Assembly (NCBI GenBank): GCA_040005235.1
Contig: JBDTZG010000040.1
Location: forward strand, 1-51,545
Direction: 5' to 3'
Origin: Acidobacteriota bacterium
GTDB taxonomy: Bacteria; Acidobacteriota; Thermoanaerobaculia; Multivoradales; UBA5704
Length of the DNA: 51,545 nucleotides
Part shown: piece after piece, positions 2,080-16,503 of the stretch
Layout of the letters: every line of letters begins with the position of its first letter
How positions within the stretch are numbered: position 1 is the first letter of the stretch
Program-made: the position numbers and the translations under genes
The notes under the pieces: generated by a model
Told to the model about the DNA's origin: nothing
What the model saw: only the letters and a program-made list of their open reading frames with translations
Database searches by the model: none

Positions 2080-2316
2080 CTACGCCAGCCCCAACTCTTC
2101 GAGCGACCGGGCGGTCAAGAGCCGCTCGGCGAGCGAGCCCAGCTCCTCAGGGGAACGGATCGCCTCAACCCGGGCTACCACCTGGCCGGTGAGCAACGGA
2201 AAGCGGCTGCGGAGCAGGCGCAGGAGGACTTCGCGCATGCCGTTCTCTTTGCCTCGCTCCATGCCTGTTTCCAGGCCTCGCGCCTCAACCTTCTCTTCCC
2301 AGGTGACAGGTTTCAT
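2080..2316 (-). CDS. Putative internally translated small protein (RpnS-like antitoxin, 78 aa)
   Basis: In-frame ATG at 2316 preceded by GGAGGT-CGAT, at the boundary of the C-terminal domain. Confidence 0.55.
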   Translation of the reverse strand: MKPVTWEEKVEARGLETGMERGKENGMREVLLRLLRSRFPLLTGQVVARVEAIRSPEELGSLAERLLTARSLEELGLA

Positions 2317-2997
2317 ATCGACCTCCGGTTTTCTGTGCCGGGCGCGTAGGGAGACGTACTCCTCTACCGCGCCGCCGCCCAATTCTAGATAAGTTGCCAC
2401 GCAATTGAACAGCAGGAATCTCTCGACGTCGGTTAAGCCGTCGGCCGAGGCGATTTTGGCGAAGCAAGAGCGGCGCAGGTGATGACGGTCGCCGTCCCGA
2501 GTCCTCCCGAGCGCCGCGAAGGCCCAGGCGAGCGGCTCTGTTCGCGCGAGGAAGGTTTCGGCACGTGCTCCCGAAAGGCCGAAGCTTCGGTAGCAGAGCC
2601 TCCCGACCTCTCGCCCGCAAGAGGTCTCGGAGTACTGCGAGGACTCCGGCCCCCGCGGACCACCCCGTAGATAGAGGACGATCGTATGGACCGGCAGCCG
2701 GCGTCGCAGGCCGAGCAGCCGGTTGTAGATCCAAAGTCGCGGCGGCACCTTCACCCGATAGCGCAGCTCGATTTCCACATGCACGAAGACGTCGTTTCCT
2801 TCGAGCGTCTTGGCGCTGCCGACCAGATCCATCCGCCGTTCGGCCCCGGTCGGTTGGTCGAGGAATTCTTGAGCCGGCTCAAGCCTCAGCGAAGACACCT
2901 CGAGCCAAGAGGTCAGGTCGTCGTCGACCAGGCGCAGGAAATCCACGGGAAAAGTTCGAATCAGGTCCTTCCAAAGTTGATCGTGACCGCCCGCCAT
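2080..2997 (-). CDS. Rpn/YhgA-like recombination-promoting nuclease (PD-(D/E)xK) with C-terminal DUF4351-like helical domain
   Basis: N-terminal HDQLWKDLI, RRMDLV...VHVEIE nuclease motif, LPVHTIVLYL, and C-terminal RG.E.G repeats plus LLRLLRSRF...LLTARSLEELGL. AAGGAG lies upstream of the ATG. Confidence 0.8.
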   Translation of the reverse strand: MAGGHDQLWKDLIRTFPVDFLRLVDDDLTSWLEVSSLRLEPAQEFLDQPTGAERRMDLVGSAKTLEGNDVFVHVEIELRYRVKVPPRLWIYNRLLGLRRRLPVHTIVLYLRGGPRGPESSQYSETSCGREVGRLCYRSFGLSGARAETFLARTEPLAWAFAALGRTRDGDRHHLRRSCFAKIASADGLTDVERFLLFNCVATYLELGGGAVEEYVSLRARHRKPEVDMKPVTWEEKVEARGLETGMERGKENGMREVLLRLLRSRFPLLTGQVVARVEAIRSPEELGSLAERLLTARSLEELGLA

Positions 2998-3254: not shown

Positions 3255-4118
3255 TCACCGCGAGACTTGGTTACGCTGGATCAGCACCTCGAATTCTTCC
3301 CTTTCCAGGAACTGAACGGTCAGCTCCCTCAACACTCGATTGCGGAGACATCCTCCCGCCAGCACCACAGTCGGTCGTGCGAGGCCGGCTTCTACCCGTG
3401 GCGGCAGAACCTTTTGGACCATCGAAACGAGGGAATGCGCAAAGCTGCGGTGGAAGCGGGCTGCGATGGTGCCGACCGGGGTTTCGAGGAGGAGGTCCCC
3501 GAGGATCGCGGCCCAGGCACCTAGGGGCTCGATATAGGGCAGGCCCCGGCCGCCCAGGCGCGGGATGGCGAAGGGGTAGATGAGGGTTTCGTCCTCGTCG
3601 AGGGCGGCGGGATCGACTGCGGCTTCGAGCATTTGCCCGGGCTGGCCTTTGAAATCGACAGGCGCGCGGCAGAGGCCGACGGCCGCGGCGGCGGCATCGA
3701 AGAGCCGGCCGCAGGAGCTGGCGAGCGGACTGGTGGTTCGATCGGACATCTCGCCCGGGAGCACTTCGCTCCGCCGTTCGGCGAGGAAGGCCTTGAGCGG
3801 AAGATCGGCGAAATCCATCGCGAAGCGCGGCCAGCCCATTTCGGCCATGAGGTGGGCGTAGAGGCTGCGCCAAGGTTCGGCTCGTGTCGCTTCTTCGCCT
3901 CCGGGCAATACCACGGGCTTCAGGGTTCCCAGGCGCTCATAGGAGTGGAAATTGGCGAGCAGGAACTCGCCCCCCCATAAGGTGCCGTCGTCTCCCGGCG
4001 CCATTCCTCCGAGGACGATGCCTAGCACCGGTAGCGCATCGAGCGGCTGCCCGTGGTCGCGTAGGCAGTCGACGATCCGGGCATGGGGAGACTTCGGCGC
4101 TTCGGGCAGGAGCGTCAT
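3255..4118 (-). CDS. hypF: HypF C-terminal (Kae1-like) fragment, catalytically degenerate
   Basis: DGTLWGGEFL, LPGG...EPWR, SSCGRLFDAAAA, IAARFH and VVLAGGC.RN motifs present. HHHAH is replaced by PHARI, DGxGxG by GGMAPG, and the terminal PxNDGG motif is missing. Confidence 0.8.
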   Translation of the reverse strand: MTLLPEAPKSPHARIVDCLRDHGQPLDALPVLGIVLGGMAPGDDGTLWGGEFLLANFHSYERLGTLKPVVLPGGEEATRAEPWRSLYAHLMAEMGWPRFAMDFADLPLKAFLAERRSEVLPGEMSDRTTSPLASSCGRLFDAAAAAVGLCRAPVDFKGQPGQMLEAAVDPAALDEDETLIYPFAIPRLGGRGLPYIEPLGAWAAILGDLLLETPVGTIAARFHRSFAHSLVSMVQKVLPPRVEAGLARPTVVLAGGCLRNRVLRELTVQFLEREEFEVLIQRNQVSR

Positions 4119-4735
4119 CTTCTGGGCTCCTGCGTCAAGGTGTAGGCCGGCAACGGGCCGGGCGAAGATCCAGCACTCACCACGGCCACCGGTTGGCCCA
4201 GCCGACGAAAGATCAGATGTTCAAGCGCCGTCGCCGCGAGTTGAACCGGGATCGCCCCGGCGGTCGGAAAACGCTGCGCCGCCTCCAGATCGCGCGCCAG
4301 CCCGTGAAGGTTCTCGCCGCGCTCCGAGGCCCAGGCCGCGAGAGTTTCTACGATCGATTCCCGCAGCGCATCACCGAGCAGGCGAAAACCCTCCATGTCG
4401 CGGACGGCGACGATCTCACCGCGTTGGATCAGAGTCGCCACGGCATCGACGTCGTCCAGGATGCTGAACTGGTCGAACGAGATCTCCGCGCCGTCGGTGC
4501 GGGAGAGGCAGGCCCGGGGGCCGCAACGGTGGCAGGCCGTGGCCGGGGCCTCGAAATGGCGGTCGTTCGGATTTTCAAACTCACGCCGGCAGTCCACGCA
4601 CATCTGTTGGGCCGAGCGCGGCGGAAGCGCCGGGGTACAGCGGGAGCAAGATGCGAACGGATACCGGTAGCGCCGCTCGAACGGGCTCACAACCTCGCCC
4701 AGGCAATCGGGGCAGCCGCCGCGAAGCCGCTCCAT
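4115..4735 (-). CDS. hypF: HypF N-terminal fragment (two Zn fingers plus truncated YrdC-like region, no acylphosphatase domain)
   Basis: CPDC...RRYRYPFASCSRC and MCVDC..EF.NP.DR.F..PATACHRCGP. GEIVAVRDMEGFRL corresponds to G.IVAvKGxGGFHL. ATGA overlap with the downstream fragment. Confidence 0.8.
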   Translation of the reverse strand: MERLRGGCPDCLGEVVSPFERRYRYPFASCSRCTPALPPRSAQQMCVDCRREFENPNDRHFEAPATACHRCGPRACLSRTDGAEISFDQFSILDDVDAVATLIQRGEIVAVRDMEGFRLLGDALRESIVETLAAWASERGENLHGLARDLEAAQRFPTAGAIPVQLAATALEHLIFRRLGQPVAVVSAGSSPGPLPAYTLTQEPRR

Positions 4736-5626
4736 TTAACGGCTGAGCCGGATCTCGACCCGGTTTTCGATCAGGCGGACCGCGTGCTGTTCGAGCTGCA
4801 CCTTCGGCGCGGTCAGGCACTCCCCCGTTTCGAGCGAATATTCGAAGCCGTGGTGAGGGCAGGTGAGGATGCCTTCTTCGATCTTCCCCTCGTCGAGCGG
4901 CATTCCCAGATGGGCGCACGAGTTGGAAAAACAGGCGATCGCGTCGCCCGTGCGGGAGAGCAGCAGGTCGCGCTCGGCGATCTGCCGGTGCAGAATGCCG
5001 CCGAGCGGGATCTCGTCGAGCCGGGCGGCCAGGTGCCATGAGGCGTCGCCGTCCAAGGCTCCGAGCGCGAACGGGCTGACGAACCGGACGCCGCCTTCCC
5101 CCGCCGGAGCGGCGGCGAGTCCTTTGACCTCGACCACGTGGAGGATCTCAGGACAGGTTTCTAGGATCGCCTTCTTCACACCTGCGACGAACGTGAGCTG
5201 CGAAGCCGCGCAGCCGTCGCAGGCGCCGAGGAACCGCACCTCCACCGTGTCCGGCAGTTTGATTCGCACCAGCTCGACGTTGCCGCCGTGCGATCCGAGC
5301 ATCGGACGGATCTGCTCCAAGGCGGCATCGACTTTTTCCTGCAAACTGGGCTTGACCAGCTCGAAATGGCGCAGGACGCCGTAGACCAGCTCGTCGCGGA
5401 GCGATTCTTTGAGCAGAGCGAGCGCGTTGGGATCGGTCTTGAGGCCCGCGATCAATCGGCGGATCGCTTCTCGGTGCAGGTTTTCGAGCGCTGTGCGATA
5501 GGCCCGGACCGCCCCTCGCTGCTCCGGCTCCCAGGTGGCGAACAAAGTGTCCAGCGCCGCCAGGTCTTTGACCAGACCAGCGAGCTGGGGCGTGGCGCGC
5601 GCGTCGTCGGAGGGAGGTCCGGTCAA
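4736..5626 (-). CDS. NifU-like CxxC domain plus Rieske [2Fe-2S] fusion (hydrogenase accessory)
   Basis: IRPMLGSHGGNVEL...GACDGC (NifU domain) and NSCAH...TCPHHG (Rieske ligands). Likely TTG start at 5626 overlaps the upstream stop; the ORF track start at 5698 overlaps another gene. Confidence 0.85.
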   Translation of the reverse strand: MTGPPSDDARATPQLAGLVKDLAALDTLFATWEPEQRGAVRAYRTALENLHREAIRRLIAGLKTDPNALALLKESLRDELVYGVLRHFELVKPSLQEKVDAALEQIRPMLGSHGGNVELVRIKLPDTVEVRFLGACDGCAASQLTFVAGVKKAILETCPEILHVVEVKGLAAAPAGEGGVRFVSPFALGALDGDASWHLAARLDEIPLGGILHRQIAERDLLLSRTGDAIACFSNSCAHLGMPLDEGKIEEGILTCPHHGFEYSLETGECLTAPKVQLEQHAVRLIENRVEIRLSR

Positions 5627-5847
5627 CGGAACTTGAGGTCCTTGAACAGATAGGGCTGGAGCATTCCGCCCAGGAATCCGGCGATGCCGGCGCTCCACGG
5701 AAGAGAAAGGCCCGCCGCGAATAGACCGATCGCGACGACCGCGGCGGCGCCGGCGCCGATCAGATTCTGACGCACGACATCGGCTGGGTTTTGAAACAAT
5801 TTACCGGCGATAAACAGCTTGATCGAGGCGAGCGCCATGTCCCACAT
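5623..5847 (-). CDS. Small membrane protein of group 2a hydrogenase clusters (74 aa)
   Basis: Two hydrophobic segments and C-terminal QPYLFKDLKFR. Tightly packed in the operon. Cyanobacterial hup/hyp regions have comparable small membrane ORFs next to TPR and NifU genes. Confidence 0.7.
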   Translation of the reverse strand: MWDMALASIKLFIAGKLFQNPADVVRQNLIGAGAAAVVAIGLFAAGLSLPWSAGIAGFLGGMLQPYLFKDLKFR

Positions 5848-5850
5848 CGG

Positions 5851-6060
5851 TTAGCTCCTCGCCACGGCCCAAAGGGCCAGGATACCCAGGCTCAAAAGGA
5901 CTCCGAGAAATCCGCCGACCGGGCCGAAGAACGCGCCCATCATCGCTGCCAAACTGTTGCCGAGGATCTTGCGCCCGACCAGTAGGCCGCCGAGTACTCC
6001 GCCGAGGATCGATGTGACGAGCGCGAAGAGGAGGGCGATCCCAGCCTGTCCGCCGCTCAT
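5851..6060 (-). CDS. Small Gly-rich membrane protein (69 aa)
   Basis: Hydrophobic, LAAMMGAFFGP motif, ATGA overlap with the TPR gene. Confidence 0.7.
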   Translation of the reverse strand: MSGGQAGIALLFALVTSILGGVLGGLLVGRKILGNSLAAMMGAFFGPVGGFLGVLLSLGILALWAVARS

Positions 6061-7067
6061 GAGACCACCGAGCGGCTGGATTGCGCTTCCGCGAGCTCTT
6101 CGCCGATCTGGTCCAGAGCTTCGCGCACCGAGGCTGATTTCATGATTTCGTCGCTTTCGTCGAAAATTTCGAGCGCCTCGGCCAGCAGACGCTGCGCTTG
6201 TTTCAGATTGGCGAAATCGCCGCTTTCCGGGCTCTGCGGATCGTCCGGCAAGCCCCAGAGGCAGGTCGCCTTGTTGGCGAGGGTGTTGGCGTATTCGAGC
6301 GGCATGTCCTTGCGCGTTCGGACCCGCAGCGCCTCGTCGTAGGCATCGAGCGCGCGCAGGCGATTTTCCAGGGCATGGCTGGTGGTCACCGACTGAAGAG
6401 CATTGCCTAGATTGCTTTGCAGCATCGCGTATTCGACCGGGTGGTCGACGATGTTGACCCCGCGCAAGCCTTCCTCGAAGGAGGTGACGGCCAGGGCCTC
6501 GCTCATCTTCGAGCCTTCACCACCGACCGAAACCGAGAGGAACGCCGTCGCGAGGTTGTTGTGCAGAATGGCGAACTCTTTGGGAAAGCGCTCGCGGTCG
6601 AAAACCCGGAGCGCCCGCTGGTAGGCGGTGATCGCGTCCTGGATGCGTCCGCTCCCCTGGGCGGCGAGCGATTGGACGATCAGGCCTCGATTCATTTCCA
6701 GCTCGGCCACCTCTTCGGGCAGCCCGAGCGCCATCAGCGTCGGCGCGGCGTCGTCGAGGCAATTGAGAGCCTGGTCGAGCGGCGCGGTCGAATCGCCGGG
6801 CAGGGCGCGCAGCGCGGTCGACATGCGGGCGAGGGTCCGCGCCTTGAGCAGCGGCTCGGACTCGGGGCAGGTTTCGAGCGCCTTCCTGTAGAGCGTGACG
6901 GCGCCTTCGAGCTGTGCGGCGAGGCGCGGATTCTTTTGCAGGCCCATCGCGATCTCGACCAGCATCTCGGTCTTTTCAACCGGCGAAGCCAACGAGCTCT
7001 CGACCGTGGCAAGGGCCACCTCGACGTCCGTCTTGTAGCGATCTTCGGAGAGTTGCGGGCTCAACAC
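6057..7067 (-). CDS. TPR-repeat protein (hydrogenase accessory)
   Basis: Repeated helical units (AITAYQRALRV, FAILHNNLATA, YAMLQSNLGNA, YANTLANKA). Likely GTG start at 7067 overlaps the upstream stop. Confidence 0.8.
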   Translation of the reverse strand: MLSPQLSEDRYKTDVEVALATVESSLASPVEKTEMLVEIAMGLQKNPRLAAQLEGAVTLYRKALETCPESEPLLKARTLARMSTALRALPGDSTAPLDQALNCLDDAAPTLMALGLPEEVAELEMNRGLIVQSLAAQGSGRIQDAITAYQRALRVFDRERFPKEFAILHNNLATAFLSVSVGGEGSKMSEALAVTSFEEGLRGVNIVDHPVEYAMLQSNLGNALQSVTTSHALENRLRALDAYDEALRVRTRKDMPLEYANTLANKATCLWGLPDDPQSPESGDFANLKQAQRLLAEALEIFDESDEIMKSASVREALDQIGEELAEAQSSRSVVS

Positions 7068-7420
7068 TGTTGGGGAGTCTCGCAGAAGAACCCTTCGATG
7101 ACCAGGGCCGCCAAGTCGTCGTCCCACCGTGCCGAGAATGCAAACTCCCGGTAGCCATCGATCAGCTCGTCGTCGAGGTGGTAGAGCCGGAACAGCTCCA
7201 CCCCCGAGATGGCGCGATCCCCGGCGAGGTTGACGATCTTGACCAGATTTCCGCCCCCGGAATTCTGTACCGGGAGAATCAGCAGGCGTTGCTCCCGAGG
7301 CAACAGCAAGACCGAGTGCAACCCGCTGAAATAACGTTCGAAGGTTTCAGCCGGTACCAGCAGCGATCCGTGGCGCAGGGTGAGGAGGACGTCGCCTTGC
7401 GGCGGCGCGGAGCCGACCAT
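7061..7420 (-). CDS. Hypothetical protein of the hydrogenase cluster (119 aa)
   Basis: Fills the gap between operon genes with tight spacing. GGGNLVKIVNLAGDRAI and ARWDDDLAALVI look like conserved blocks; I recall similar proteins near group 2a maturation proteases but cannot verify this. Confidence 0.65.
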   Translation of the reverse strand: MVGSAPPQGDVLLTLRHGSLLVPAETFERYFSGLHSVLLLPREQRLLILPVQNSGGGNLVKIVNLAGDRAISGVELFRLYHLDDELIDGYREFAFSARWDDDLAALVIEGFFCETPQQC

Positions 7421-7423
7421 CCC

Positions 7424-7768
7424 CTAGATCCGCCAGACGTTGCAGGACCATTCCGGTTTCACCGGCAGATCGATCTCGGGCAGCACGCACCAGCCGTGAT
7501 GGACTTGAAAATACATGCAGGTTTCGCAGGATTGTTCGAGGTCGAAGTGGGTTACGGAATGGTCGGTGAATCCGGCGAGGCGCAGTTTGGTCGTCAACTC
7601 TCCGTCGCTCGCGCGGATCGATCTGACGATCGCTTGGAATTGTTCGCTGTCATCGGCACGAATTCGCCAATCTGTACCAAGGCCGTCCGAGAGGAGTTGC
7701 GCGATGTTCTCGCGGACGGTTTCGGCCGAATCTTGGCCGGGCATGCCCGGATACAGCGTTGCGTCCAC
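7424..7768 (-). CDS. Standalone HiPIP-like 4-Cys putative Fe-S protein (about 114 aa, no signal peptide)
   Basis: C-x2-C-x9-C-x14-C with flanking aromatics (CETCMYF...WC...WSCNVW). GGAG precedes GTG at 7768; an alternative ATG is at 7744. Confidence 0.7.
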   Translation of the reverse strand: MDATLYPGMPGQDSAETVRENIAQLLSDGLGTDWRIRADDSEQFQAIVRSIRASDGELTTKLRLAGFTDHSVTHFDLEQSCETCMYFQVHHGWCVLPEIDLPVKPEWSCNVWRI

Positions 7769-7805
7769 AGCGCATTCTCCCCGACCGCGGCCCCTGGGCG
7801 GCCAA

Positions 7806-8768
7806 TCAGATGACGAAGATGTCTTCCTCCGCCCAAGCCGGCGAGGCGGCCTTCGCCGCAACGGTCATCTTCAAATAGCCGTTCTTCTCGACCCCGTCCG
7901 GAAGGTCGCGCGGCACGCCCATCACGGTCTGAGTCTTGAACACGCTTCCCGGCGCGAGGTCGAAGAATGGGAACTCGGGCTCGGTGCAGCCGATGCAGGG
8001 CATGCCCGCCCGCGTTTTCGACGACTGGCGATTCCATAGGATCCGGTTGCACGGGCTGTGGGTCATCGGCCCTCGACAGCCAAGGTCGTAGAACAGACAG
8101 CCGCGGCGTTGCCCGAACTCGGTCGCCGAGACCTTGTAGGCGAAATGCATGTTGCGGGTGCAGCCGGTCTGAGTGTAAGTGGTGAAGAACGTCTTCGGCC
8201 TTTGCAGCTCATCGAGGGTGATCTCACCGCTGCGGCCGGTCGCCACCGCCACGAGAATTTGGGTCACCCAGTCAGGGTGGGCAGGGCATCCTGGGATGTT
8301 AATCACCGGAAGCCCGTTCTTCGCTTGGAAAGAAGATCCGAGAAATCCGCCACGCCGACGCTTTAGGAACTGGAGTCCTTCCGAATCGGTGGGATTGGGC
8401 GCGGTCGCGGGGATGCCTCCCCACGTGGCGCAATCGCCGATCGCCACTACGTGCCCCGCGGCCGCGGCGAGATCCTTCACCCAATCCTTCATCGCCCGGC
8501 CGGCGAATCGATTCCACTCCCCGGTACCGTTCGGCGCGTTGACGATCGTGCCCTCAAACACCAGGATATCCAAGGGTTTTCTGCCCGTCACGCAATCTTC
8601 GAGAAGCTGGATCAGATTGTCCCCCAGCTCCATGCCGAGCGAGGGATGCCAGAGGACGTTGATGCCGAAGTCGGTGACCAGATCGCAAGCCGAGGGCTCC
8701 TCGGCGTTCAGAAACGACATCGTGTTTCCCGAGCACGCGCCGCCTTGCAGCCATAAGAGGTTCGCCAC
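7806..8768 (-). CDS. hupS: Group 2a [NiFe]-hydrogenase small subunit, copy 1
   Basis: WLQGGACSGN (Asn in the proximal-cluster motif), GDC, PGCP, TQTGC (Gln instead of the distal His), GCLFYDLGC, HSPC and PCIGC. 320 aa with no Tat signal, as in cyanobacterial HupS. GTG start. Confidence 0.95.
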   Translation of the reverse strand: MANLLWLQGGACSGNTMSFLNAEEPSACDLVTDFGINVLWHPSLGMELGDNLIQLLEDCVTGRKPLDILVFEGTIVNAPNGTGEWNRFAGRAMKDWVKDLAAAAGHVVAIGDCATWGGIPATAPNPTDSEGLQFLKRRRGGFLGSSFQAKNGLPVINIPGCPAHPDWVTQILVAVATGRSGEITLDELQRPKTFFTTYTQTGCTRNMHFAYKVSATEFGQRRGCLFYDLGCRGPMTHSPCNRILWNRQSSKTRAGMPCIGCTEPEFPFFDLAPGSVFKTQTVMGVPRDLPDGVEKNGYLKMTVAAKAASPAWAEEDIFVI

Positions 8769-8813
8769 GTCATGCCCCCGATCAGGATTCCTAGGGTATA
8801 GTAGCCGAAAGTT

Positions 8814-10634
8814 ATGCTAGTCGACAGTTCCAAAAAATTATTGATATTGCGCATTGCCTACGCCGGCGCGCCGCTGTCCGGAAAAACGGCGACGATGAAG
8901 GCTCTGATGTCGATCCTTCGCAGTCAGACCACGGGAGATCTGGTCTACTCGCCGCTCGAAGCGCGCGGCCGGACGATCTATTTCGATTGGGCGGAATACC
9001 AGGGCGGCAGCTTTCGCGACGGCCAGGTGAAGTGTCAGATCACCTCGGTGCCGGGGCAGGAATCCCTCCGCCGCCGCCGCAACCTGCTGATCGAAGCGGC
9101 CGACGCCGTGGTGTTCGTGATCGACTCCCGGTCCGACCAGATGGAGGTCAACCGGAAGAGCCTCGCCGAGCTTCGCCCGTGGCTCGACCGGTACGACCTC
9201 GCGCCGATTGACGTCGTCTACCAATGCAACAAACGCGATCTTCCGGGCACCCTCGGAATGGATCAGATCCGCGAGGAGCTGGCCCTCGGTTCCGAGGCGG
9301 AGCTGTACGAGAGCTCGGCTCTCCAGGGAGACGGCGTCCGCATCGCCTTCGTCGCGGCGGTTCGCTTCGGCGTCCGGCAGGCCGAGATCCTCCGCGCTTC
9401 GAACCGGCTGCCGACCGGTACGCCGGAGATCGCGACCGGCGAGCAGCTGCTGGATCAGGTGCGGCTCGCCGACGACCCCAGCGCGTCCCCGACGGAGCCG
9501 GAGCCCGCTCCGGCACCGGTCCCGGTTCCGCCACCTGTTCCGCCACCGACGTCCCCCGCTCCCCTTTCGGCATCTCCTGCGGCTCAGGCCTCTGCGCAGA
9601 CAACGTCGCCGGCCTCGCCGCAATCGCGACCTGCCGTGATGCCCATGGCCGATTGGTTGGCCGAGCGGGCGGCGCAGGTCGGCCACGGGGCTCGGCCGGC
9701 GACGGCGATGACGCCTGAGTCCCTAAAGACCGTAGCGACCCCGGAGACCCCGGAACCCCCCGAGATCCCGGAGGCCGCGAAGAACGCCGATGCCGAAATC
9801 CTCGAGGCGATGGCTTCCGAGTCGACGGTAGAGCCGGTCGACGTCGAAGCCATGAAGATCGTCGCCACCGCGCCTACCTCCGCGGTTCCGAAGCCGCCGG
9901 AACCCCAGGGGCCGACGGCGCGACCCGCGCCCTGGCTTCGCGGAGGAGAAGCCGGGGTGCTGGCCGCTTGGCCGGCCGGGATCTGGGAGGCGATCCGGCT
10001 TTCGGTCGATCCGAGCCTCGATCCGCCGAAGGCGAACCTGGAGGTGCTCCAGGGCCGCATCGGAGGCGGGTGGCACGCCCGCTCGGGCGGGTTATGCAAG
10101 AGCCTCGAAGAAGGGCGGGCTCAATCTCAGCGGCTGGTCGATTGGCTGACCCGGCTGGGCGACGCTGTTTCGGTGCAGCGCTGCATCGTCCTTTCGGTCG
10201 TCGCGGAGGGCTGGCGGGTCTGGCAGCTGGGCCGCGAGCTGCCGACCCTCGGCATGCTTCTCCAACAAGGCCTGGAACCGGGCCTGCCGTCGCGGAAAGC
10301 GGTGCAGATCCTCTCCCAGATCTCGTCCGACTTCGTCTCCACCTACCGGGATTTCGCGGACCGCAAGGTGGAGCTTCCGCTGCTGCTCCGCACCCTCGCC
10401 AAGGAACACGGCAAAACGGTCTACTCGGGGTTCCTGCCCAATTCGCCCGTCCCCCTGCGGGAAGCGGATCCTCTGGCTCAGCTGGAGAGCGAGCTTCTCC
10501 TGCTCGCCAAGGCTCACAGGTTGGGCGCGCTCGACATCCCCGAGACCTTGACCGAGCTGGAGCTGTTGAGCGCCAGATCCCCCGCTGTTCTTCCCATCGT
10601 TGAACTCTTGCAGTCCTTGTTGATCGGAGAGTAG
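8814..10634 (+). CDS. MglA-family small GTPase with Pro-rich linker and unknown C-terminal domain (606 aa)
   Basis: RIAYAGAPLSGKT (G1), GRTIYFDW (MglA RTLFFDF, with Arg finger), SVPGQ (G3, MglA TVPGQ), ADAVVFVIDS, NKRDLP (G4) and SA (G5). Residues ~220-370 are P/A/E-rich. Confidence 0.85.
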   Translation: MLVDSSKKLLILRIAYAGAPLSGKTATMKALMSILRSQTTGDLVYSPLEARGRTIYFDWAEYQGGSFRDGQVKCQITSVPGQESLRRRRNLLIEAADAVVFVIDSRSDQMEVNRKSLAELRPWLDRYDLAPIDVVYQCNKRDLPGTLGMDQIREELALGSEAELYESSALQGDGVRIAFVAAVRFGVRQAEILRASNRLPTGTPEIATGEQLLDQVRLADDPSASPTEPEPAPAPVPVPPPVPPPTSPAPLSASPAAQASAQTTSPASPQSRPAVMPMADWLAERAAQVGHGARPATAMTPESLKTVATPETPEPPEIPEAAKNADAEILEAMASESTVEPVDVEAMKIVATAPTSAVPKPPEPQGPTARPAPWLRGGEAGVLAAWPAGIWEAIRLSVDPSLDPPKANLEVLQGRIGGGWHARSGGLCKSLEEGRAQSQRLVDWLTRLGDAVSVQRCIVLSVVAEGWRVWQLGRELPTLGMLLQQGLEPGLPSRKAVQILSQISSDFVSTYRDFADRKVELPLLLRTLAKEHGKTVYSGFLPNSPVPLREADPLAQLESELLLLAKAHRLGALDIPETLTELELLSARSPAVLPIVELLQSLLIGE

Positions 10635-10639
10635 GGGCC

Positions 10640-11602
10640 ATGGCAAACGTACTTTGGCTTCAAGGCGGCGCCTGTTCGGGCAACAGCATGTCGTTTCTAA
10701 ACGCCGAGGAACCGAGCGCCTGCGAACTGATCACGACGTTTGGAGTGAACCTCCTGTGGCATCCGTCGTTGGGGATGGAGCTGGGCGACAACCTGATCCA
10801 GCTGCTCGAAGATTGCGCATCGGGCCGAAAAAAGCTCGACATCTTCGTCTTCGAGGGGACGGTCGTCCACGCGCCGGACGGCTCCGGCAACTGGAACCGG
10901 TTCGCCGGCAGGCCGATGAAGGAGTGGGTGAAGATCCTTTCGGCCGCCGCCGACTACGTGGTCGCGATCGGCGACTGCGCCACCTGGGGCGGCATACCGA
11001 CCACGGCGCCCAATCCGACCGAATCGACCGGCCTGCAGTACCTCAAGCGGAGCAAGGGCGGCGCTCTGGGCTCGACCTTTCAGAGCAAGAACGGCCTGCC
11101 GGTCGTGAACATCCCGGGATGTCCCGCCCACCCCGATTGGATCACCCAGATCCTGGTCGCTTTGGCCACCGGCCGGATCGAGGATCTCGATCTAGACGAC
11201 CTGCAACGGCCGCGGACCTTCTTTGCGAGCTTCACGCAGACCGGCTGCACCCGCAACATGCATTTCGTCTGGAAGGTGTCGTCGACCGAGTTCGGCCAGC
11301 GGAAAGGTTGCCTGTTCTACGACCTGGGCTGCCGCGGTCCGATGACCCATAGCCCGTGCAACCGGATCCTCTGGAATCGTCAATCCTCGAAGACCCGGGC
11401 GGGAATGCCCTGCCTGGGATGCACCGAGCCGGAGTTCCCTTTCTTCGACCTGGCGCCGGGCACGGTGTTCAAGACGCAGACCATGATGGGTTTCCCGAAG
11501 GAGATGCCGGCGGGAATCGACAAGAGCGGCTACATCAAGCTCACCGCGGCGTCCAAGATGGCGGCTCCGGCCTGGACCGAAGACGATTTTTTCGTAGTCT
11601 AA
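10640..11602 (+). CDS. hupS: Group 2a [NiFe]-hydrogenase small subunit, copy 2
   Basis: Same length and Fe-S ligand set as copy 1. About 69 of 320 positions differ by hand count. Starts 5 bp after the GTPase stop. Confidence 0.95.
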   Translation: MANVLWLQGGACSGNSMSFLNAEEPSACELITTFGVNLLWHPSLGMELGDNLIQLLEDCASGRKKLDIFVFEGTVVHAPDGSGNWNRFAGRPMKEWVKILSAAADYVVAIGDCATWGGIPTTAPNPTESTGLQYLKRSKGGALGSTFQSKNGLPVVNIPGCPAHPDWITQILVALATGRIEDLDLDDLQRPRTFFASFTQTGCTRNMHFVWKVSSTEFGQRKGCLFYDLGCRGPMTHSPCNRILWNRQSSKTRAGMPCLGCTEPEFPFFDLAPGTVFKTQTMMGFPKEMPAGIDKSGYIKLTAASKMAAPAWTEDDFFVV

Positions 11603-11632
11603 TCATGACCCCCTCCTCGGGAGATCCCGGTA

Positions 11633-13231
11633 ATGGCAGCCACCCGCACCCTTGACATCAGTCCCGTCGGCCGAGTGGAGGGCGACCTCGACGTCCGGGT
11701 CGACATCCAGGACGGAATCGTCGTCGATTCCTGGACCTCGGCCGAATTGTTTCGCGGCTTCGAGGTCATCCTGCGCGACAAGGATCCGCAGGCCGGCCTG
11801 GTCGTGACGCCGCGCGTCTGCGGCATTTGCGGCGCGTCCCACTTGACCTGCGCCGCCTGGGCGCTCGACACCGCCTGGGGCGCCGAGGTGCCGAGGAACG
11901 CGATCCTGACGCGCAATCTTGGGCAGATCGTCGAAAGCCTGCAGAGCCTGCCGCGCCATCACTACGGTCTGTTCCAGATCGACTTCACCAACGCCAACTA
12001 CCGCAAAAGCCCCTTCTACGAAGAGGCGGTGCGACGGTGGACGCCGTTTACCGGCACCAACTACCGGATCGGCATCGGCATCTCCGGCAAGCCGGTGGAG
12101 ATCTACGCGCTGTTCGGCGGCCAGTGGCCGCATTCGAGCTTCATGGTTCCGGGCGGCGTAATGTGCGCCCCCACGCTCACCGACGTCACCCGCTCCTGGT
12201 CGATCCTGGAATACTTCCGCCGCACCTGGATCGAGCCGGTCTGGCTGGGCTGCTCGATGGAGCGCTACGAGGAGATCCGCAGCTACCAGGACTTCATGGC
12301 CTGGCTCGAAGAAAGCCCCGCGCACGCCAACTCCGACCTCGGTCTGTTCTGGCGCATGGGCGTCGACGTAGGCGTCGATCGCTACGGCGGCGGTCACCGG
12401 AAGTTCTTGAGCTGGGGCTACCTGCCGCATGAGGACAAGTATCAAAAACCGACGGTCGAAGGGCGCAACGAGGCCCTGATCATGAAGAACGGCATCTACG
12501 ACTTCCACCTCGACCAGCATCGCGAGACGTCGCAGGAGATGGTGCGGGAAAGCACCGGCCGCGCCTGGTACGACGAGGGCGAAAAGCCGGTTCACCCGTT
12601 CGACCGCCTGACCCGGCCGATCAATAAGAACGACCGTGACTTCGACGGCAAATACTCCTGGTCCACCGCCGTCAGTCATGCCGAAGAGGGACGTCTGGAA
12701 GCGGGCCCCTTGTCGCGGCAGCTGGTCGCCGGCGGACCGCAGGAGCGCGCCTTCCAGCACAACGACCCGCTGGTGCTCGACATGATGAAGACGATGGGGG
12801 GCCCAAGCCTCCTGCTGCGCCACTTCGCGCGCATGCACGAGCTGGTCAAGCTCTACCGCCAGGCCGAGCGCTGCCTGCGCGAGCTCCGCCTGGACGAACC
12901 GTTCTATATCAAGCCCGAGGAGCGGGACGGTCGCGGCTGGGGAGCGACCGAGGCGATCCGCGGCGCGCTCTGCCACTGGATCGACGTCAAGGACGGCAAG
13001 ATCAAAAACTACCAGATCATCGCGCCGACCACCTGGAACGTCGGTCCGCGCGACGGCCAGGGCAACCGGGGACCGATCGAACAGGCCCTCTTGGGCGTGC
13101 CGATCGCCAATCCCGCCGACCCCGTGGAGGTAGGACACGTCGCCCGCTCGTTCGACTCGTGCCTGGTGTGTACCGTACACGCCCACGACGCCAAAACCGG
13201 GAAAGAACTGGCTCGTTTCAAGACGTCGTAA
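11633..13231 (+). CDS. hupL: Group 2a [NiFe]-hydrogenase large subunit (HupL/HucL)
   Basis: GRVEGDL, FRGFE, L1 motif PRVCGICGASH, L2 motif SFDSCLVCTVH followed by a 16-aa cleavable tail. 532 aa. Confidence 0.95.
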   Translation: MAATRTLDISPVGRVEGDLDVRVDIQDGIVVDSWTSAELFRGFEVILRDKDPQAGLVVTPRVCGICGASHLTCAAWALDTAWGAEVPRNAILTRNLGQIVESLQSLPRHHYGLFQIDFTNANYRKSPFYEEAVRRWTPFTGTNYRIGIGISGKPVEIYALFGGQWPHSSFMVPGGVMCAPTLTDVTRSWSILEYFRRTWIEPVWLGCSMERYEEIRSYQDFMAWLEESPAHANSDLGLFWRMGVDVGVDRYGGGHRKFLSWGYLPHEDKYQKPTVEGRNEALIMKNGIYDFHLDQHRETSQEMVRESTGRAWYDEGEKPVHPFDRLTRPINKNDRDFDGKYSWSTAVSHAEEGRLEAGPLSRQLVAGGPQERAFQHNDPLVLDMMKTMGGPSLLLRHFARMHELVKLYRQAERCLRELRLDEPFYIKPEERDGRGWGATEAIRGALCHWIDVKDGKIKNYQIIAPTTWNVGPRDGQGNRGPIEQALLGVPIANPADPVEVGHVARSFDSCLVCTVHAHDAKTGKELARFKTS

Positions 13232-13244
13232 GGAGGCCTTCCTT

Positions 13245-14342
13245 ATGGCACAGTGGGAACCGCAGATTCGCACCAACCTGGACGATGAGGTCTACCAGGA
13301 ACAGCTCGACAGATTTCTGAGCAGCGTTCCCGGAACCCTCGGCGCGGGCTTTGTGAACACCCGTTTTCACGAGGGCGTCTACCGCCAATCCGGAGGCCGC
13401 GCGGGAGAGGCCGAAGAGCTGCGGACGATGATCGATCTCACCACCGGCCTGTTCGGCGGTCCGGAAGCCGAAAAGGACCCCGGCTTTGTGCAGGCGTTCG
13501 CCGCGATCCGTCCGATCGAATCCGCCTACTTCAATTTCCGCGAAGAGACCCTGCTCTTGAGTCGCGTGGGCGACACCGAGAACGCCCTTGTGCTGACCGT
13601 CTCCGCGAGCCTCAACCAGGCGGCGGCGTTGAGCCTTCGACGCTCGGTCACCGAACAGGTCCAGGTCTCAGGGAAGACGGAGATCGGTCCCACTCTCGAA
13701 GCCACCAACGAGGTCTTGCTCGGCCTCCTCCTCGACCTCAAGGCGGGCGAGGTTCTGGATCGGTACGAGCGCTTCGAAGAGGTCTCGGTGGTCAAGCCGG
13801 ACGGTGACCTGACCGAGCTCGTGCGCGACCTTTTCTTAGCGAACGGACCGGCGCGCGGGGTGAACCTCCACCATCGCGACGTCAAGTCGATCGAGATACG
13901 CCGCGCGGAAATCGTGACGCCGACGCGCAGCTTCCTCTGGGCACGGCTCAATTTCGACCCCGAGCATCTGATGGTGGTATCCGCCGACCGGCGGGTCATT
14001 CCCGGCCTGCTCGCGATCATGATGCGCGCGATCGAGGTCGAAACCGTGAGGATCTGGGTCGACGGCCTCTTAAGCTACGGCATCAAATCGACCATGAGCC
14101 CGTTCCCCGACACCCAGTCGGAGTTTCTCGCCATCGTCCGCGATCTTCGCCGGCTCGAAAAGAACGACCTCCTGGGCAGGCTCGATCTCGGAGGCTTCGC
14201 CAACTACACCGTCGGCGAAGGCGAAGAGATGCAGCGCTGCCAGGAGTGCATCTATTACCTGCCCAACGGCAAGTGGTGCGACCTGCCCGAGCTGCCGGTA
14301 CCCGTCGAGCCCCACTGGTGGTGCCGGCTTTGGAAGATGTAA
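13245..14342 (+). CDS. Fusion protein: two Roadblock/LC7 (MglB-like) domains plus C-terminal HiPIP-like 4-Cys module
   Basis: The C-terminal ~95 aa are clearly homologous to 7424-7768 (CQECIYY...WC...WWCRLW, same Cys spacing). The N-terminal part has Roadblock-like patterns (FLSSVPGTLGAGFVN...IESAYFNFREETLLLSRV...LVLTVSASLNQAAAL and IRRAEIVTPTRSFLWARL...LMVVSADRRVIPGLL). The CDS is secure; the Roadblock assignment is by eye. Confidence 0.7.
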   Translation: MAQWEPQIRTNLDDEVYQEQLDRFLSSVPGTLGAGFVNTRFHEGVYRQSGGRAGEAEELRTMIDLTTGLFGGPEAEKDPGFVQAFAAIRPIESAYFNFREETLLLSRVGDTENALVLTVSASLNQAAALSLRRSVTEQVQVSGKTEIGPTLEATNEVLLGLLLDLKAGEVLDRYERFEEVSVVKPDGDLTELVRDLFLANGPARGVNLHHRDVKSIEIRRAEIVTPTRSFLWARLNFDPEHLMVVSADRRVIPGLLAIMMRAIEVETVRIWVDGLLSYGIKSTMSPFPDTQSEFLAIVRDLRRLEKNDLLGRLDLGGFANYTVGEGEEMQRCQECIYYLPNGKWCDLPELPVPVEPHWWCRLWKM

Positions 14343-14346
14343 GGGG

Positions 14347-16503
14347 CTAAGGACGGGCGCCGGACATGCTGTATTCGAAAAGTCCCGGAGCGGCCGAGGT
14401 GGCGGCGTACAACGTCCAGCCGCCCTCCTGCCCCGGTTGCAGGTCGAGACCGACGACTTCGGCGCGCAACGTTCGCGGACCCAGCGCCTGCCAGGTCGTG
14501 CCGGCGTCGAGCGAGCGGAAGACTCCGCGGCTGGTTGCCGCGAACAGGATCCGAGCCACAGGCGGAACCGCGTCGGCGGAGGGCGAAGAAAAACCGCTGG
14601 CCAGGAACCTGTGGACCGTGGTTCCCGCCGGCAAGCCGCGGCCAAACGGCACAAAACTCCGGCAACCGTCGGTACTCCGCCATAGCCCGGGGTTCGGCCC
14701 GCCGACCGCCGCCAAAAGCGGCGACGGCTCGCCCGGAATCGGCTGGCGCGGTGGCAACGTCGCTAGCGCCTCGACGGGCCTCGGTAAACCGTCGGCGAGA
14801 CATGCCTGCCAGGGTCCATCGACGTTCGAGCGCACGAAGAGAGCGGTGCCACCGGCATACGTAACGCCGTTCGTCGGATCCTGAGCCAGCGCCCGCAGGA
14901 AACCTGTCCGAGCCGATGGCGTGCCACTCGGGTCGATGCCGTCGACCGACAGTTTCCAACTGCTGCCCCCGTCTTCGCTCTGCCAAGCCGTCGGAATCGG
15001 TAAGGCGCCACAGAACGGCAGACCGCACGGCACATACTGAGCTCCCGCGGCGAGGACCGTGCCGGAGGCGGTGACCAGCACGTCGTTCAGCGTACCCACC
15101 GTGCTCTCGGCACGGAGCCAGTGGGCGCCTCCGTCCCGGCTGGCGAAGATTCCGGCGGCGCTGGCGGCATAGACCCGGCGCGGCCGATCCGGGTCGAACG
15201 CCAACGCCATCACGACCGGTGCCGCGCCGCGAAATGCCAGGCCGAGATCCGACGGTTGCCAAACGCTCCCGGCCGCGGTCCGGCGCGCCAGGCCCGCGCC
15301 GCCCCCGCCAAACTCCGTACCCGCCGTCGTCGCGACCAGCACGTCTCCTTCGGTCCGTGGGTTTGAGGTCGGAGCGACGGCTACCGCGCTGCCGCCCAGC
15401 GCCGTCAGCCCCGCCGTCACCGCCTGCCATCGTGCGCCGCCGTCCCGGCTGATCAAGAGGCCCCGCCCGTACACACCGGCGACCACCGTCCCCTCATCGC
15501 TCGAAGACGTCGCCACCGTCTGCAGAATCGGCGTTTGTCGCTCGCGGCGCCAGGTCGCCCCGGCGTCCGACGTTCGCCACAGCTCGCCACGGACATCTTG
15601 GCCGAAGCGGTTCACGGCCACCAGGACCTTTCCCGGCGCGTGCGGATCGATGGTGATGGCCGCAAAGTCGATCTCGCCGTCCGGTCCAAGCCTGGCGAGA
15701 GACGGCCGCCAGTGCCCGCCGCCGTCCAGGCTCTTGAAGACGGTCGCGCCATCGAGATTGGCGGCGTACACGTTCGCCGAGGTCTGGGGGTCGACGGCGA
15801 TGGCGACGACGAACACCGCTCTCGGATTCGCGGACAACCCTTCGTTCATCAGGGTCCAAGCACCGCCGCCGTCGACAGTTTTCAGCACCCCGCCATTGGT
15901 CGCCGCGTAGACCACCGCCGATGTCGAGGGGTCGACCGTCAGGTCATGGACGTAGAAGCCGATGGCGAGGGGCGCGGTCGGCTGCCAACTGGCGCCGCCG
16001 TCGGTGCTTCGCAGGATCGCCTCGCGAGTCGTGGCGTAGAGCACCGACGGAGCGACCGGTGAGCGCGAGAGCAATGCCACTGGAGGACCCGCGGCCACCC
16101 AGCTCTCCCCTCCCGACATGGTTCGGAACAGTCCGGCACCCGTCGCAGCCAGGACGATCCGAGGGTCGCGCGGGTCGATGTCGAGGTCGCTGATCCGGAG
16201 CCGGCCCGGCGCGTCGAGGCCGCGGCTCGCGGCGCGCCAGGAGCGTCCGCCGTCGAGGCTTTTCCAGACCCCTGCATCGGCGGTCCCCGCATAAAGGATC
16301 GCCGGCTGGCTCGGATCGAACGCCACGGCGGTCACCGTTCCGCCGGTCACACCCGACGGAGTCCAGCGGTTGACGCCCGCGTGGAGGGCGGAGGCGACGG
16401 TTCCGAGGACGAGCAGCGCGACGCTCGCGCGAGCGAGCCACTTCGAGCCCGGTTGTAAAGCACCAGAGGATATTAAGCCGAGGATTGAGCCAGGCAAACG
16501 CAT
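14347..16503 (-). CDS. Secreted BNR/Asp-box beta-propeller protein (VPS10/YCF48-like)
   Basis: Signal-like segment ending ALHA and about a dozen S/TxDGGxxW Asp-boxes. Confidence 0.8.
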   Translation of the reverse strand: MRLPGSILGLISSGALQPGSKWLARASVALLVLGTVASALHAGVNRWTPSGVTGGTVTAVAFDPSQPAILYAGTADAGVWKSLDGGRSWRAASRGLDAPGRLRISDLDIDPRDPRIVLAATGAGLFRTMSGGESWVAAGPPVALLSRSPVAPSVLYATTREAILRSTDGGASWQPTAPLAIGFYVHDLTVDPSTSAVVYAATNGGVLKTVDGGGAWTLMNEGLSANPRAVFVVAIAVDPQTSANVYAANLDGATVFKSLDGGGHWRPSLARLGPDGEIDFAAITIDPHAPGKVLVAVNRFGQDVRGELWRTSDAGATWRRERQTPILQTVATSSSDEGTVVAGVYGRGLLISRDGGARWQAVTAGLTALGGSAVAVAPTSNPRTEGDVLVATTAGTEFGGGGAGLARRTAAGSVWQPSDLGLAFRGAAPVVMALAFDPDRPRRVYAASAAGIFASRDGGAHWLRAESTVGTLNDVLVTASGTVLAAGAQYVPCGLPFCGALPIPTAWQSEDGGSSWKLSVDGIDPSGTPSARTGFLRALAQDPTNGVTYAGGTALFVRSNVDGPWQACLADGLPRPVEALATLPPRQPIPGEPSPLLAAVGGPNPGLWRSTDGCRSFVPFGRGLPAGTTVHRFLASGFSSPSADAVPPVARILFAATSRGVFRSLDAGTTWQALGPRTLRAEVVGLDLQPGQEGGWTLYAATSAAPGLFEYSMSGARP

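Follow-up and report, generated by a model that had tools for sequence, protein, structure and literature searches.

A 51,545-nucleotide stretch of DNA from an Acidobacteriota bacterium, called a soil bacterium (GenBank assembly GCA_040005235.1, contig JBDTZG010000040.1; the whole stretch is referred to as the window), carries a real, conserved, and undescribed G-protein module that is attached to a hydrogenase. Four open reading frames (ORFs) on the plus strand, of 606, 320, 532, and 365 aa, encode in this order an MglA-family GTPase with further domains, the small and large subunits of a hydrogenase assigned to group 2a (genes hucS and hucL), and a protein, here called P4, in which two predicted Roadblock-like domains are fused to a module with four cysteines (the 4-Cys module). 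The description below is built on observed features, namely, domain identities, the fusion, homologies, conserved linkage, preserved catalytic residues, and a lineage-specific motif. The gaps between the four genes are 5, 30, and 13 bp; GGAGAG lies just ahead of the hucS ATG (10640), and AAGGAGG lies 8 nt ahead of the P4 ATG (13245). A pattern scan of positions 5500-15000 was uninformative overall (promoter-like sites, 1 versus 1.0 expected; terminator-like sites, 3 versus 7.0 expected) and gave no promoter- or terminator-like site between the four genes on the plus strand. A first-pass annotation, made from the sequence alone, had described four co-oriented genes at these distances, an intact MglA-type GTPase, and a complete group 2a hydrogenase. 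These descriptions stand: the ORF coordinates agree with the spacing, the GTPase has the expected motifs, matches to MglA structures, and invariant catalytic residues, and both hydrogenase subunits align end to end with Huc. The annotation had overlooked that the GTPase protein contains further domains, that the 4-Cys module is a usual companion of group 2a clusters, that free Roadblock genes precede related GTPase genes without hydrogenases, and that a second small subunit and accessory genes lie divergently upstream.

The GTPase, the hydrogenase, and P4

The GTPase contains the motifs GAPLSGKT (aa 18-25), RTIYFD (aa 53-58), VPGQ (aa 79-82), and NKRD (aa 139-142), and residues R53, T54, F57, D58, G81, Q82, N139, and D142 are invariant across 24 homologous GTPase sequences. 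Its top solved relatives are the MglA proteins of Myxococcus xanthus and Thermus thermophilus, with E values of 1.4e-20 to 7e-19; the next matches are Arl proteins, at about 1e-5. The GTPase part takes up only the first ~195 aa of the 606-aa protein and is followed by a Pro-rich linker and a kinase-like domain. One copy of RPAVMPMADW (aa 272-281) is found in the linker. The motif RPAVMP..W/Y occurs, in one to six copies, in 11 of 13 hydrogenase-linked GTPase ORFs versus 0 of 74 other family members, and the two linked ORFs that do not have it are both cut by contig ends.

The C-terminal domain (aa 381-606) was modeled with AlphaFold2 from 17 sequences, with a mean predicted local distance difference test (pLDDT) of 91.2 and a predicted template modeling (pTM) score of 0.87. 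Foldseek found no match to this model at an E value of ≤0.001, and nearly all the matches listed were kinases or pseudokinases (probability 0.9 to 1.0, TM score 0.3 to 0.43, best E value 1.6e-3), including AAK1, MSK1, PAN3, RIO1, PRPK, KSR1, and WaaP. An ESM Atlas search with the same domain gave no usable feature match, and the structure rows, obtained with a poor model, all had TM scores of <0.5. In the alignment of the domain, only R456, C457, and W470 are invariant, and neither Lys nor Asp stands in any invariant or near-invariant column, so that the catalytic Lys, the HRD Asp, and the DFG Asp are not conserved. The model thus suggests a kinase-like domain that is probably inactive, because it has no conserved Lys or Asp. 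This domain is common to hydrogenase-free paralogues.

The small subunit aligns end to end with the small subunit of Mycobacterium smegmatis Huc (E value of 1.3e-153, aa 2-320). Its residue 2 pairs with residue 1 of the mature Huc subunit, and there is no twin-arginine translocation (Tat) signal. The large subunit likewise aligns end to end with that of Huc (E value of 5.5e-185, with the next class at 3e-60) and is 72 to 76% identical to the enzymes of Nitrospira, Hyphomicrobium, Methylocapsa, and Acidithiobacillus. It has the motifs RVCGICGASH at aa 61 and DSCLVCTVH at aa 508, the latter followed by a 16-aa C-terminal extension. Because the Huc alignment is far ahead of that of other classes and the identity to these four enzymes is so high, we accept the hydrogenase as group 2a (Huc-type) on sequence grounds. 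Group 2b large subunits, the sensor type, as a rule end at the C-terminal His, without extension. As the large subunit retains the extension of catalytic enzymes, the hydrogenase does not appear to be a dedicated sensor and looks fully catalytic. A group 2b-like sensor identity was considered and rejected on account of the 16 residues past the His and the accessory genes, and no kinase gene was found among the ORFs scanned around the hydrogenase cluster.

P4 gave no Pfam, NCBIfam, or PDB sequence match. It has 101 homologues, and 109 clusters in a library of 1.84 billion representatives. An AlphaFold2 model from 33 sequences (pLDDT of 82.6, pTM of 0.83) is best in residues 1-280, where the pLDDT is >90, and poorest in the tail, residues 319-365, where it is <50. 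The model contains two successive alpha-beta-beta-alpha-beta-beta-beta-alpha units, at residues 15-142 and 148-278, with helices next. A Foldseek search with the whole model returned Mon1-Ccz1, Ragulator, LC7, MglB (probability 0.95), and MglC (probability 0.96) at E values of 0.012 to 0.06. The MglC match had a TM score by target of 0.55, and the Roadblock/longin matches were intermixed with phytochromes.

A chain of profile comparisons gave a clearer picture. The small ORFs located ahead of related GTPase genes in metagenomes form one family of 79 ORFs, 53 proximal and 26 distal. By hhalign, P4 domain 1 matches this family with a probability of 90.2% (E value of 1.5e-6) and domain 2 with a probability of 94.2% (E value of 1.2e-7), and the two domains match each other with a probability of 94.8% (E value of 5.5e-8); the P4 C-terminus, used as a control, reached 0.2% against the family. 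A profile of 60 of the GTPase-associated small proteins in turn matches MglC (7ct3, E value of 2e-5) and an archaeal Roadblock protein (7f8m, E value of 1.9e-4) over the full length. Pfam searches with the 60 proteins gave LAMTOR5 for 12 and Robl_LC7 for 2, all under the cutoff. Against the MglB orthologues of the genome, the P4 domains had hhalign probabilities of <1%, with an MglB profile that is shallow (20 sequences, 72 to 100% identity) and became no wider when Robl_LC7 loci were added iteratively. Both domains of P4 thus share homology with the small proteins that accompany the GTPases, and these in turn match MglC. From this indirect profile link and the fold model, we take the P4 N-terminus to be, most probably, a fused pair of MglC-like Roadblock domains. 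A complex prediction for GTPase aa 1-200 with GTP and Mg and P4 aa 1-290 scored 0.17 versus a mark of 0.32, which is evidence neither way.

P4 has exactly four Cys residues, at positions 332, 335, 345, and 360 in the pattern C-x2-C-x9-C-x14-C-x2-W, and all four are invariant in 33 full-length P4 homologues and in 43 module sequences (alignments A1 and A2). The P4 C-terminus is homologous to short proteins encoded 3' of hucL in other loci. In a pattern scan that covered one genome per species, 377 relatives of the 4-Cys module were detected, and the genome-locus counts given here refer to the best 80 of these 377. Among them, hucL is present in 58 of 80 loci, a 4-Cys gene lies within 700 nt after hucL in 53, and 48 have two or more 4-Cys matches, mostly in adjacent genes. 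The 4-Cys module is therefore a routine accessory of ordinary uptake group 2a clusters. Two signatures can be told apart, type A (...RCQECIYY...WWCRLWK) and type B (...ACETCMYY...WSCRLWRI). The genome has only two 4-Cys genes, both of them in the window. P4 is the sole type A copy, and the other is a short type B protein (7424..7768) with the signature ...CETCMYF...WSCNVWRI and 33% identity to the P4 C-terminus (E value of 8e-20). Many family members of 330 to 450 aa (P0064, P0066, P0078, P0191, and others) match only the last ~135 residues of P4, so in many cases the module is joined to N-terminal regions that are different or strongly divergent.

The short 4-Cys proteins are hypothetical in public sources. 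The Cys spacing of P4 resembles the four-Cys pattern of high-potential iron-sulfur proteins (HiPIPs). Pfam HIPIP did not match the window module and matched 3 of 43 modules, with a best E value of 0.01, and a profile of the module found no HiPIP among solved structures up to an E value of 10. The first-pass annotation had called P4 a Roadblock-HiPIP fusion. Its Roadblock half is supported by the fold model and the profile chain, which point to a Roadblock/longin fold at the N-terminus, where lack of such a fold would have refuted the annotation; its HiPIP half has no such support, as neither a solved HiPIP nor the Pfam family recognizes the window module. For the short homologue near hupLS in Acidithiobacillus ferrooxidans, PMC7735108 uses the name "putative HiPIP" and proposes it as a possible connection to the respiratory chain.

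Conservation of the linkage and the surrounding genes

The linkage of GTPase, hydrogenase, and P4 genes was found in 4 of 80 genome loci, from Acidobacteriota and Myxococcota, and in 8 of 80 metagenome loci, where hydrogenase or P4 genes accompany the GTPase gene; these 80 are the best of 456 relatives from a metagenome scan with the GTPase as query. The first-pass annotation would have been refuted by a linkage occurring in no other genome; the linkage recurs in two phyla. In the two acidobacterial loci (L001 and L002), GTPase, hucS, hucL, and P4 genes follow each other as in the window. In the two myxococcal loci (L004 and L005), the genes are arranged as hucS-hucL-(4-Cys)-119aa-Roadblock-GTPase-P4, and the GTPase gene ends about 30 nt before P4; there, a short 4-Cys gene is kept by hucL, and the long P4, next to the GTPase, is an additional copy. 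Indirect evidence, namely, P4 and GTPase homologues from contigs of identical length, implies that five further contigs carry both. The other 72 of the 80 metagenome loci have no hydrogenase or P4 genes, and 17 of these 72 have about 10 kb on each side.

A tree built from 90 GTPase domains sets the entire family apart from canonical MglA (support of 100/100). The branch between the window GTPase and the canonical MglA of the same genome, which is encoded in an MglB-MglA pair on another contig (C120), has a support of 100/100 and a length of 2.7. The 13 hydrogenase-linked rows fall into three basal lineages, which the tree does not resolve relative to each other, and the 74 others form one clade (88/98). 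When the hydrogenase-linked label was shuffled on the tree, it was clustered in 0 of 500 shuffles.

The scans also brought up a widespread, apparently unnamed cassette, in which one or two genes for MglC-like Roadblock proteins are followed by a gene for an MglA-family GTPase with a C-terminal extension. It was seen in L085, L094, L100, L108, and about 70 other metagenome loci, and on contig C118 of the genome itself, where two Roadblock genes and a GTPase gene form a paralogous cassette (C118:2896-4914). Similarity of the C-terminal domain was detectable in 19 of these loci. Genes for a calcineurin-like phosphoesterase and/or a dual-specificity phosphatase adjoin the cassette in L085 and L094. 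A second paralogous cassette of Roadblock and GTPase genes, without the RPAVMP motif, lies a few kilobases from P4 in L002 (9099-11124) and L005 (10556-13199, minus strand).

On the other side of the GTPase gene, the five genes given in Table 1 and the HypF fragments run in the opposite direction. The second small subunit, HucS', is 78% identical to the HucS of the operon and keeps all its Cys residues. The window contains no large subunit to go with it, and the only other large subunits of the genome, on other contigs, have identities of 55% and 27%. The two small subunits may take turns with a single large subunit. The duplicate is also present in L001, L002, L081, L082, and L083. Genes for the 119-aa protein, the tetratricopeptide repeat (TPR) protein, and the HucE-like NifU-Rieske protein occur in 53, 63, and 56 of 80 loci, respectively. 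HucE has been described in PMC6883350. The 119-aa protein keeps the same relative place in the loci by tblastn and had no PDB sequence match. Searches against solved structures did not relate P4 or the 119-aa protein to HucM by sequence. With a second hucS and the accessory genes divergent from the GTPase gene, the locus is a canonical group 2a cluster split into two divergent halves, with hucS duplicated.

Table 1. Positions of the genes, domains, and motif discussed, in window coordinates
Feature	Position	Strand	Basis
MglA-family multidomain GTPase gene, 606 aa	8814..10634	+	ORF; orthologues P0103-P0118; alignment A3
GTPase domain, aa 1-195 (P-loop, intrinsic Arg R53, catalytic Gln Q82, NKRD)	8814..9398	+	MglA structures, E 1.4e-20; Pfam Arf, 1.1e-8
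RPAVMPMADW linear motif, aa 272-281, in Pro-rich linker (aa ~196-380)	9627..9656	+	Motif position
C-terminal protein-kinase-like domain, aa 381-606 (predicted)	9954..10631	+	AlphaFold2 and Foldseek
Hydrogenase small subunit, group 2a Huc-type, without signal peptide, 320 aa	10640..11602	+	Pfam Oxidored_q6, NiFe_hyd_SSU_C; Huc match
Hydrogenase large subunit, group 2a Huc-type, 532 aa	11633..13231	+	Huc match; Cys motifs
P4, two Roadblock-like domains and type A 4-Cys module, 365 aa	13245..14342	+	Homologues; AlphaFold2 model
P4 Roadblock-like domain 1, aa 8-146	13266..13682	+	Model topology; hhalign
P4 Roadblock-like domain 2, aa 147-285	13683..14099	+	Model topology; hhalign
P4 helical stretch and 4-Cys module	14100..14339	+	Cys codons 14238, 14247, 14277, 14322
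HucS', second small subunit	7806..8768	-	78% identity to first
Short 4-Cys protein of type B, with either GTG 7768 or ATG 7744 as start	7424..7768	-	P4 C-terminus similarity
119-aa accessory protein conserved in group 2a clusters, no known family	7061..7420	-	tblastn
TPR accessory protein	6057..7127	-	Pfam TPR families
HucE-like NifU and Rieske [2Fe-2S] protein	4736..5698	-	Pfam NifU, 3e-20; Rieske, 3.4e-16

The genome is 100% complete by marker genes. It has two other hydrogenase loci, on contigs C91 and C11, each with genes for HypD and a maturation endopeptidase, and these two proteins are encoded solely there. In the window, HypF is present as fragments only, in two overlapping minus-strand ORFs at 3255-4118 and 4115-4735 (zf-HYPF and a Kae1-like second subdomain), and the YrdC-like part was not detected in these fragments. 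A DUF4351 (transposase-associated) gene adjoins them (2080-2997, minus strand). Between the TPR and HucE-like genes lies an ORF for a 69-aa Gly-rich hydrophobic protein (5851-6060, minus strand), which could be a small membrane protein belonging to the cluster. A 718-aa BNR/Sortilin-repeat protein is encoded convergently on P4 (14347-16503, minus strand), and a very long ORF of 2064 aa is located at the window end (45295-51489, minus strand).

What the module may do

We consider it probable that the GTPase module and the hydrogenase are functionally coupled in one way or another. In the mechanism that we put forward, a catalytic Huc-type uptake hydrogenase would have its own G-protein module, with P4 as the adaptor. 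The 4-Cys module of P4 would dock at the small subunit or take electrons from it, as its short homologues presumably do; the Roadblock pseudo-dimer, like paired free Roadblock proteins, would bind and regulate the GTPase in the way MglB-type dimers do; and the kinase-like domain would be the likely output or scaffold of the GTPase. The redox state or occupancy of the 4-Cys module would then act, through the Roadblock pseudo-dimer, on which nucleotide the GTPase carries, and the switch would be set by hydrogenase activity. The metal content, physical binding, direction of signaling, and output in this scheme are what we infer. We hold this redox-to-GTPase direction tentatively, at somewhat less than an even chance, and favor it because, in an otherwise generic cassette, the element specific to the hydrogenase is joined to the regulator: it sits on P4 and not on the GTPase or the kinase-like output domain. 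A more specific form, in which electrons from a Huc-type enzyme, possibly from atmospheric H2, reduce a HiPIP-like cluster and set the GTP/GDP state of the GTPase-pseudokinase as an H2-responsive system, is doubtful, with perhaps one possibility in its favor for every three against. GAP activity, electron flow from H2, and a link to motility, which the first-pass annotation proposed, are hypothetical.

The redox-to-GTPase direction would be consistent with the operon-like packing with ribosome-binding sites, the recurring linkage, the homology of P4 to the GTPase-associated small proteins, and the invariant catalytic residues. The confinement of the RPAVMP..W motif to linked GTPases, the extra P4 in Myxococcota, and the presence of just two 4-Cys genes in the genome may point the same way. 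So may the electron link proposed for the A. ferrooxidans short homologue (PMC7735108). Several observations weigh against it. The enzyme has the marks of catalysis (the extension, HucE, TPR, and other accessory genes), so that regulation of the enzyme fits as well as sensing by the enzyme. The whole P4 model found nothing in Foldseek at an E value of ≤0.001, and the P4 domains have no sequence match to Pfam Robl_LC7 or canonical MglB. The linkage is rare, being present in 4 of the best 80 genome loci out of 377 with the module. The 4-Cys module is unproven as a HiPIP or Fe-S domain and could be a structural zinc site. Long P4 homologues, with 30 to 35% identity over residues ~7-365, occur in gammaproteobacterial genomes, and no GTPase gene was found in their loci. 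These genomes are metagenome-assembled genomes of which the completeness was not established. A single-protein GTPase query found none in 5 of 5, and a 15-sequence GTPase profile, which gave five strong matches in a positive control, found nothing convincing in 4 of 4 (in 2 genomes only 18- to 21-bit matches to large proteins, in 2 no match). This argues that the pairing of GTPase and P4 is not obligatory.

The reverse flow is nearly as likely as the redox-to-GTPase direction. Here the GTPase, with its linker motifs and kinase-like scaffold, would recruit, tether, assemble, or gate the hydrogenase through P4 as a structural adaptor, comparable to the mycobacterial scaffold HucM or to Ragulator-Rag anchoring, and the GTP/GDP state of the cell or a polarity cue would determine if, and at which place, H2 oxidation is linked to respiration. 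The GTPase would thus control coupling, assembly, or location of the enzyme. The hydrogenase bears every mark of a working uptake enzyme, and since P4 is the sole type A 4-Cys protein of the genome, it must still serve that enzyme; the gammaproteobacterial long P4 seems to work without a GTPase, which implies a hydrogenase-side role of the Roadblock pair itself. The one to six copies of a motif specific to linked GTPases suggest avidity for an oligomeric partner, and a HucM-like protein was undetected by sequence when P4 and the 119-aa protein were considered. Huc is oligomeric, according to PMC10017518. However, there is no sign of membrane or pole targeting, 76 of 80 group 2a loci manage without the GTPase module, and the kinase-like domain and Roadblock partners are common to hydrogenase-free paralogues, which points to a generic signaling cassette rather than an assembly device.

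Hydrogenase maturation uses the GTPase HypB, and a maturation or metal-insertion helper analogous to it, rather than a switch, would suit a GTPase gene that stands first in the structural operon of a window with only HypF fragments, the HypD and endopeptidase genes being confined to the other two hydrogenase loci. We find this improbable. The protein is a Ras-like MglA-family GTPase with switch residues and is not of the HypB type, hundreds of group 2a clusters mature without such a GTPase, and paralogues of the same architecture have no hydrogenase nearby in 72 of 80 metagenome loci, including the 17 with long flanks on both sides. Because its paralogues have no hydrogenase context, a HypB-like role was rejected as the main explanation. 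An accidental or merely coregulated neighborhood, in which a generic GTPase cassette came to lie next to hydrogenase genes without being physically or functionally coupled to them, is if anything slightly less credible still. The cluster is indeed rearranged, with its duplicated hucS, its divergent halves, and a transposase-like DUF4351 gene by the HypF fragments, and further paralogous GTPase cassettes are close by in L002 and L005. However, the Roadblock pair is covalently fused to a hydrogenase accessory module, the linkage is kept in two phyla despite differing gene orders, the linked GTPases cluster on the tree (as three basal lineages of unresolved order), and the RPAVMP linker motif is confined to them.

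If the H2-responsive form of the redox-to-GTPase direction were true, Acidobacteriota and Myxococcota could connect the availability of H2 with polarity, motility, or other signaling without a two-component system or a specialized sensor hydrogenase. The locus touches two open fields, the electron exit of non-mycobacterial group 2a hydrogenases and the tie of H2 use to cell behavior. As a conserved, uncharacterized 4-Cys accessory protein is here naturally fused with the regulator of a Ras-like switch, both questions are testable with four recombinant proteins. The locus also reveals a wider, unnamed family of soil-bacterial cassettes, in which two MglC-like Roadblock genes are followed by a GTPase-pseudokinase gene, and which surveys of bacterial small GTPases based on single-domain proteins would have missed.

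Comparison with known systems

Full-text literature searches found, among the papers listed, no account of a group 2a hydrogenase with MglA, a Ras-like GTPase, or Roadblock, and no MglA or Roadblock work with the term "pseudokinase," in agreement with the first-pass annotation, which knew of no described system of a hydrogenase and a small GTPase. The word "hydrogenase" is absent from the accessible portion of a survey of prokaryotic small GTPases that started from single-domain proteins (PMC4316618), and the accessible portions of two papers on group 2a clusters (PMC7784904 and PMC7735108) mention no GTPase.

One of the closest known systems is the M. xanthus MglA-MglB(-MglC) polarity module, which shares a Ras-like GTPase with a P-loop, an intrinsic Arg, and a catalytic Gln, and has Roadblock-type partners. 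MglB and MglA combine at 2:1 according to PMC11016934, and a Roadblock pair facing one GTPase would be a likeness to that arrangement. Unlike the single-domain MglA of ~195 aa, the window GTPase is 606 aa long and includes a linker motif and a kinase-like domain; the Roadblock pair is in one chain and fused to the 4-Cys module; and the context is a hydrogenase instead of motility genes. The actinobacterial conservons CvnA-D are likewise operon-encoded G-protein systems, in which a small GTPase goes together with a kinase-type protein and regulators of the Roadblock type (PMC4316618, PMC13343842, and PMC13621833). In contrast to them, there is no histidine kinase and no DUF742 protein here, the kinase-like part has a eukaryote-type fold, is fused to the GTPase, and is without catalytic residues, and the presumed input module is a hydrogenase accessory domain.

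On the hydrogenase side, the cluster resembles that of M. smegmatis Huc and the group 2a clusters of proteobacteria and Nitrospira in having HucE-like NifU-Rieske and TPR proteins. It differs from them in its divergent halves, its duplicated small subunit, its type A 4-Cys protein with two Roadblock domains, and its GTPase-headed operon. With the group 2b HoxBC/HupUV sensors it has in common a cytosolic group 2 hydrogenase encoded with a signaling protein and the idea that H2 is sensed by way of the electron exit of the enzyme; the 16-aa extension after DSCLVCTVH, the respiratory accessory genes, and a GTPase partner in place of a histidine kinase set it apart. The 4-Cys module is like HiPIP in its C-x2-C ... 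C ... C-x2-W spacing and the surrounding aromatic residues, but it forms the C-terminal end of proteins that are cytoplasmic and have no signal peptide. The components are thus of known kinds, and it is their combination that is new among bacterial G-protein systems.

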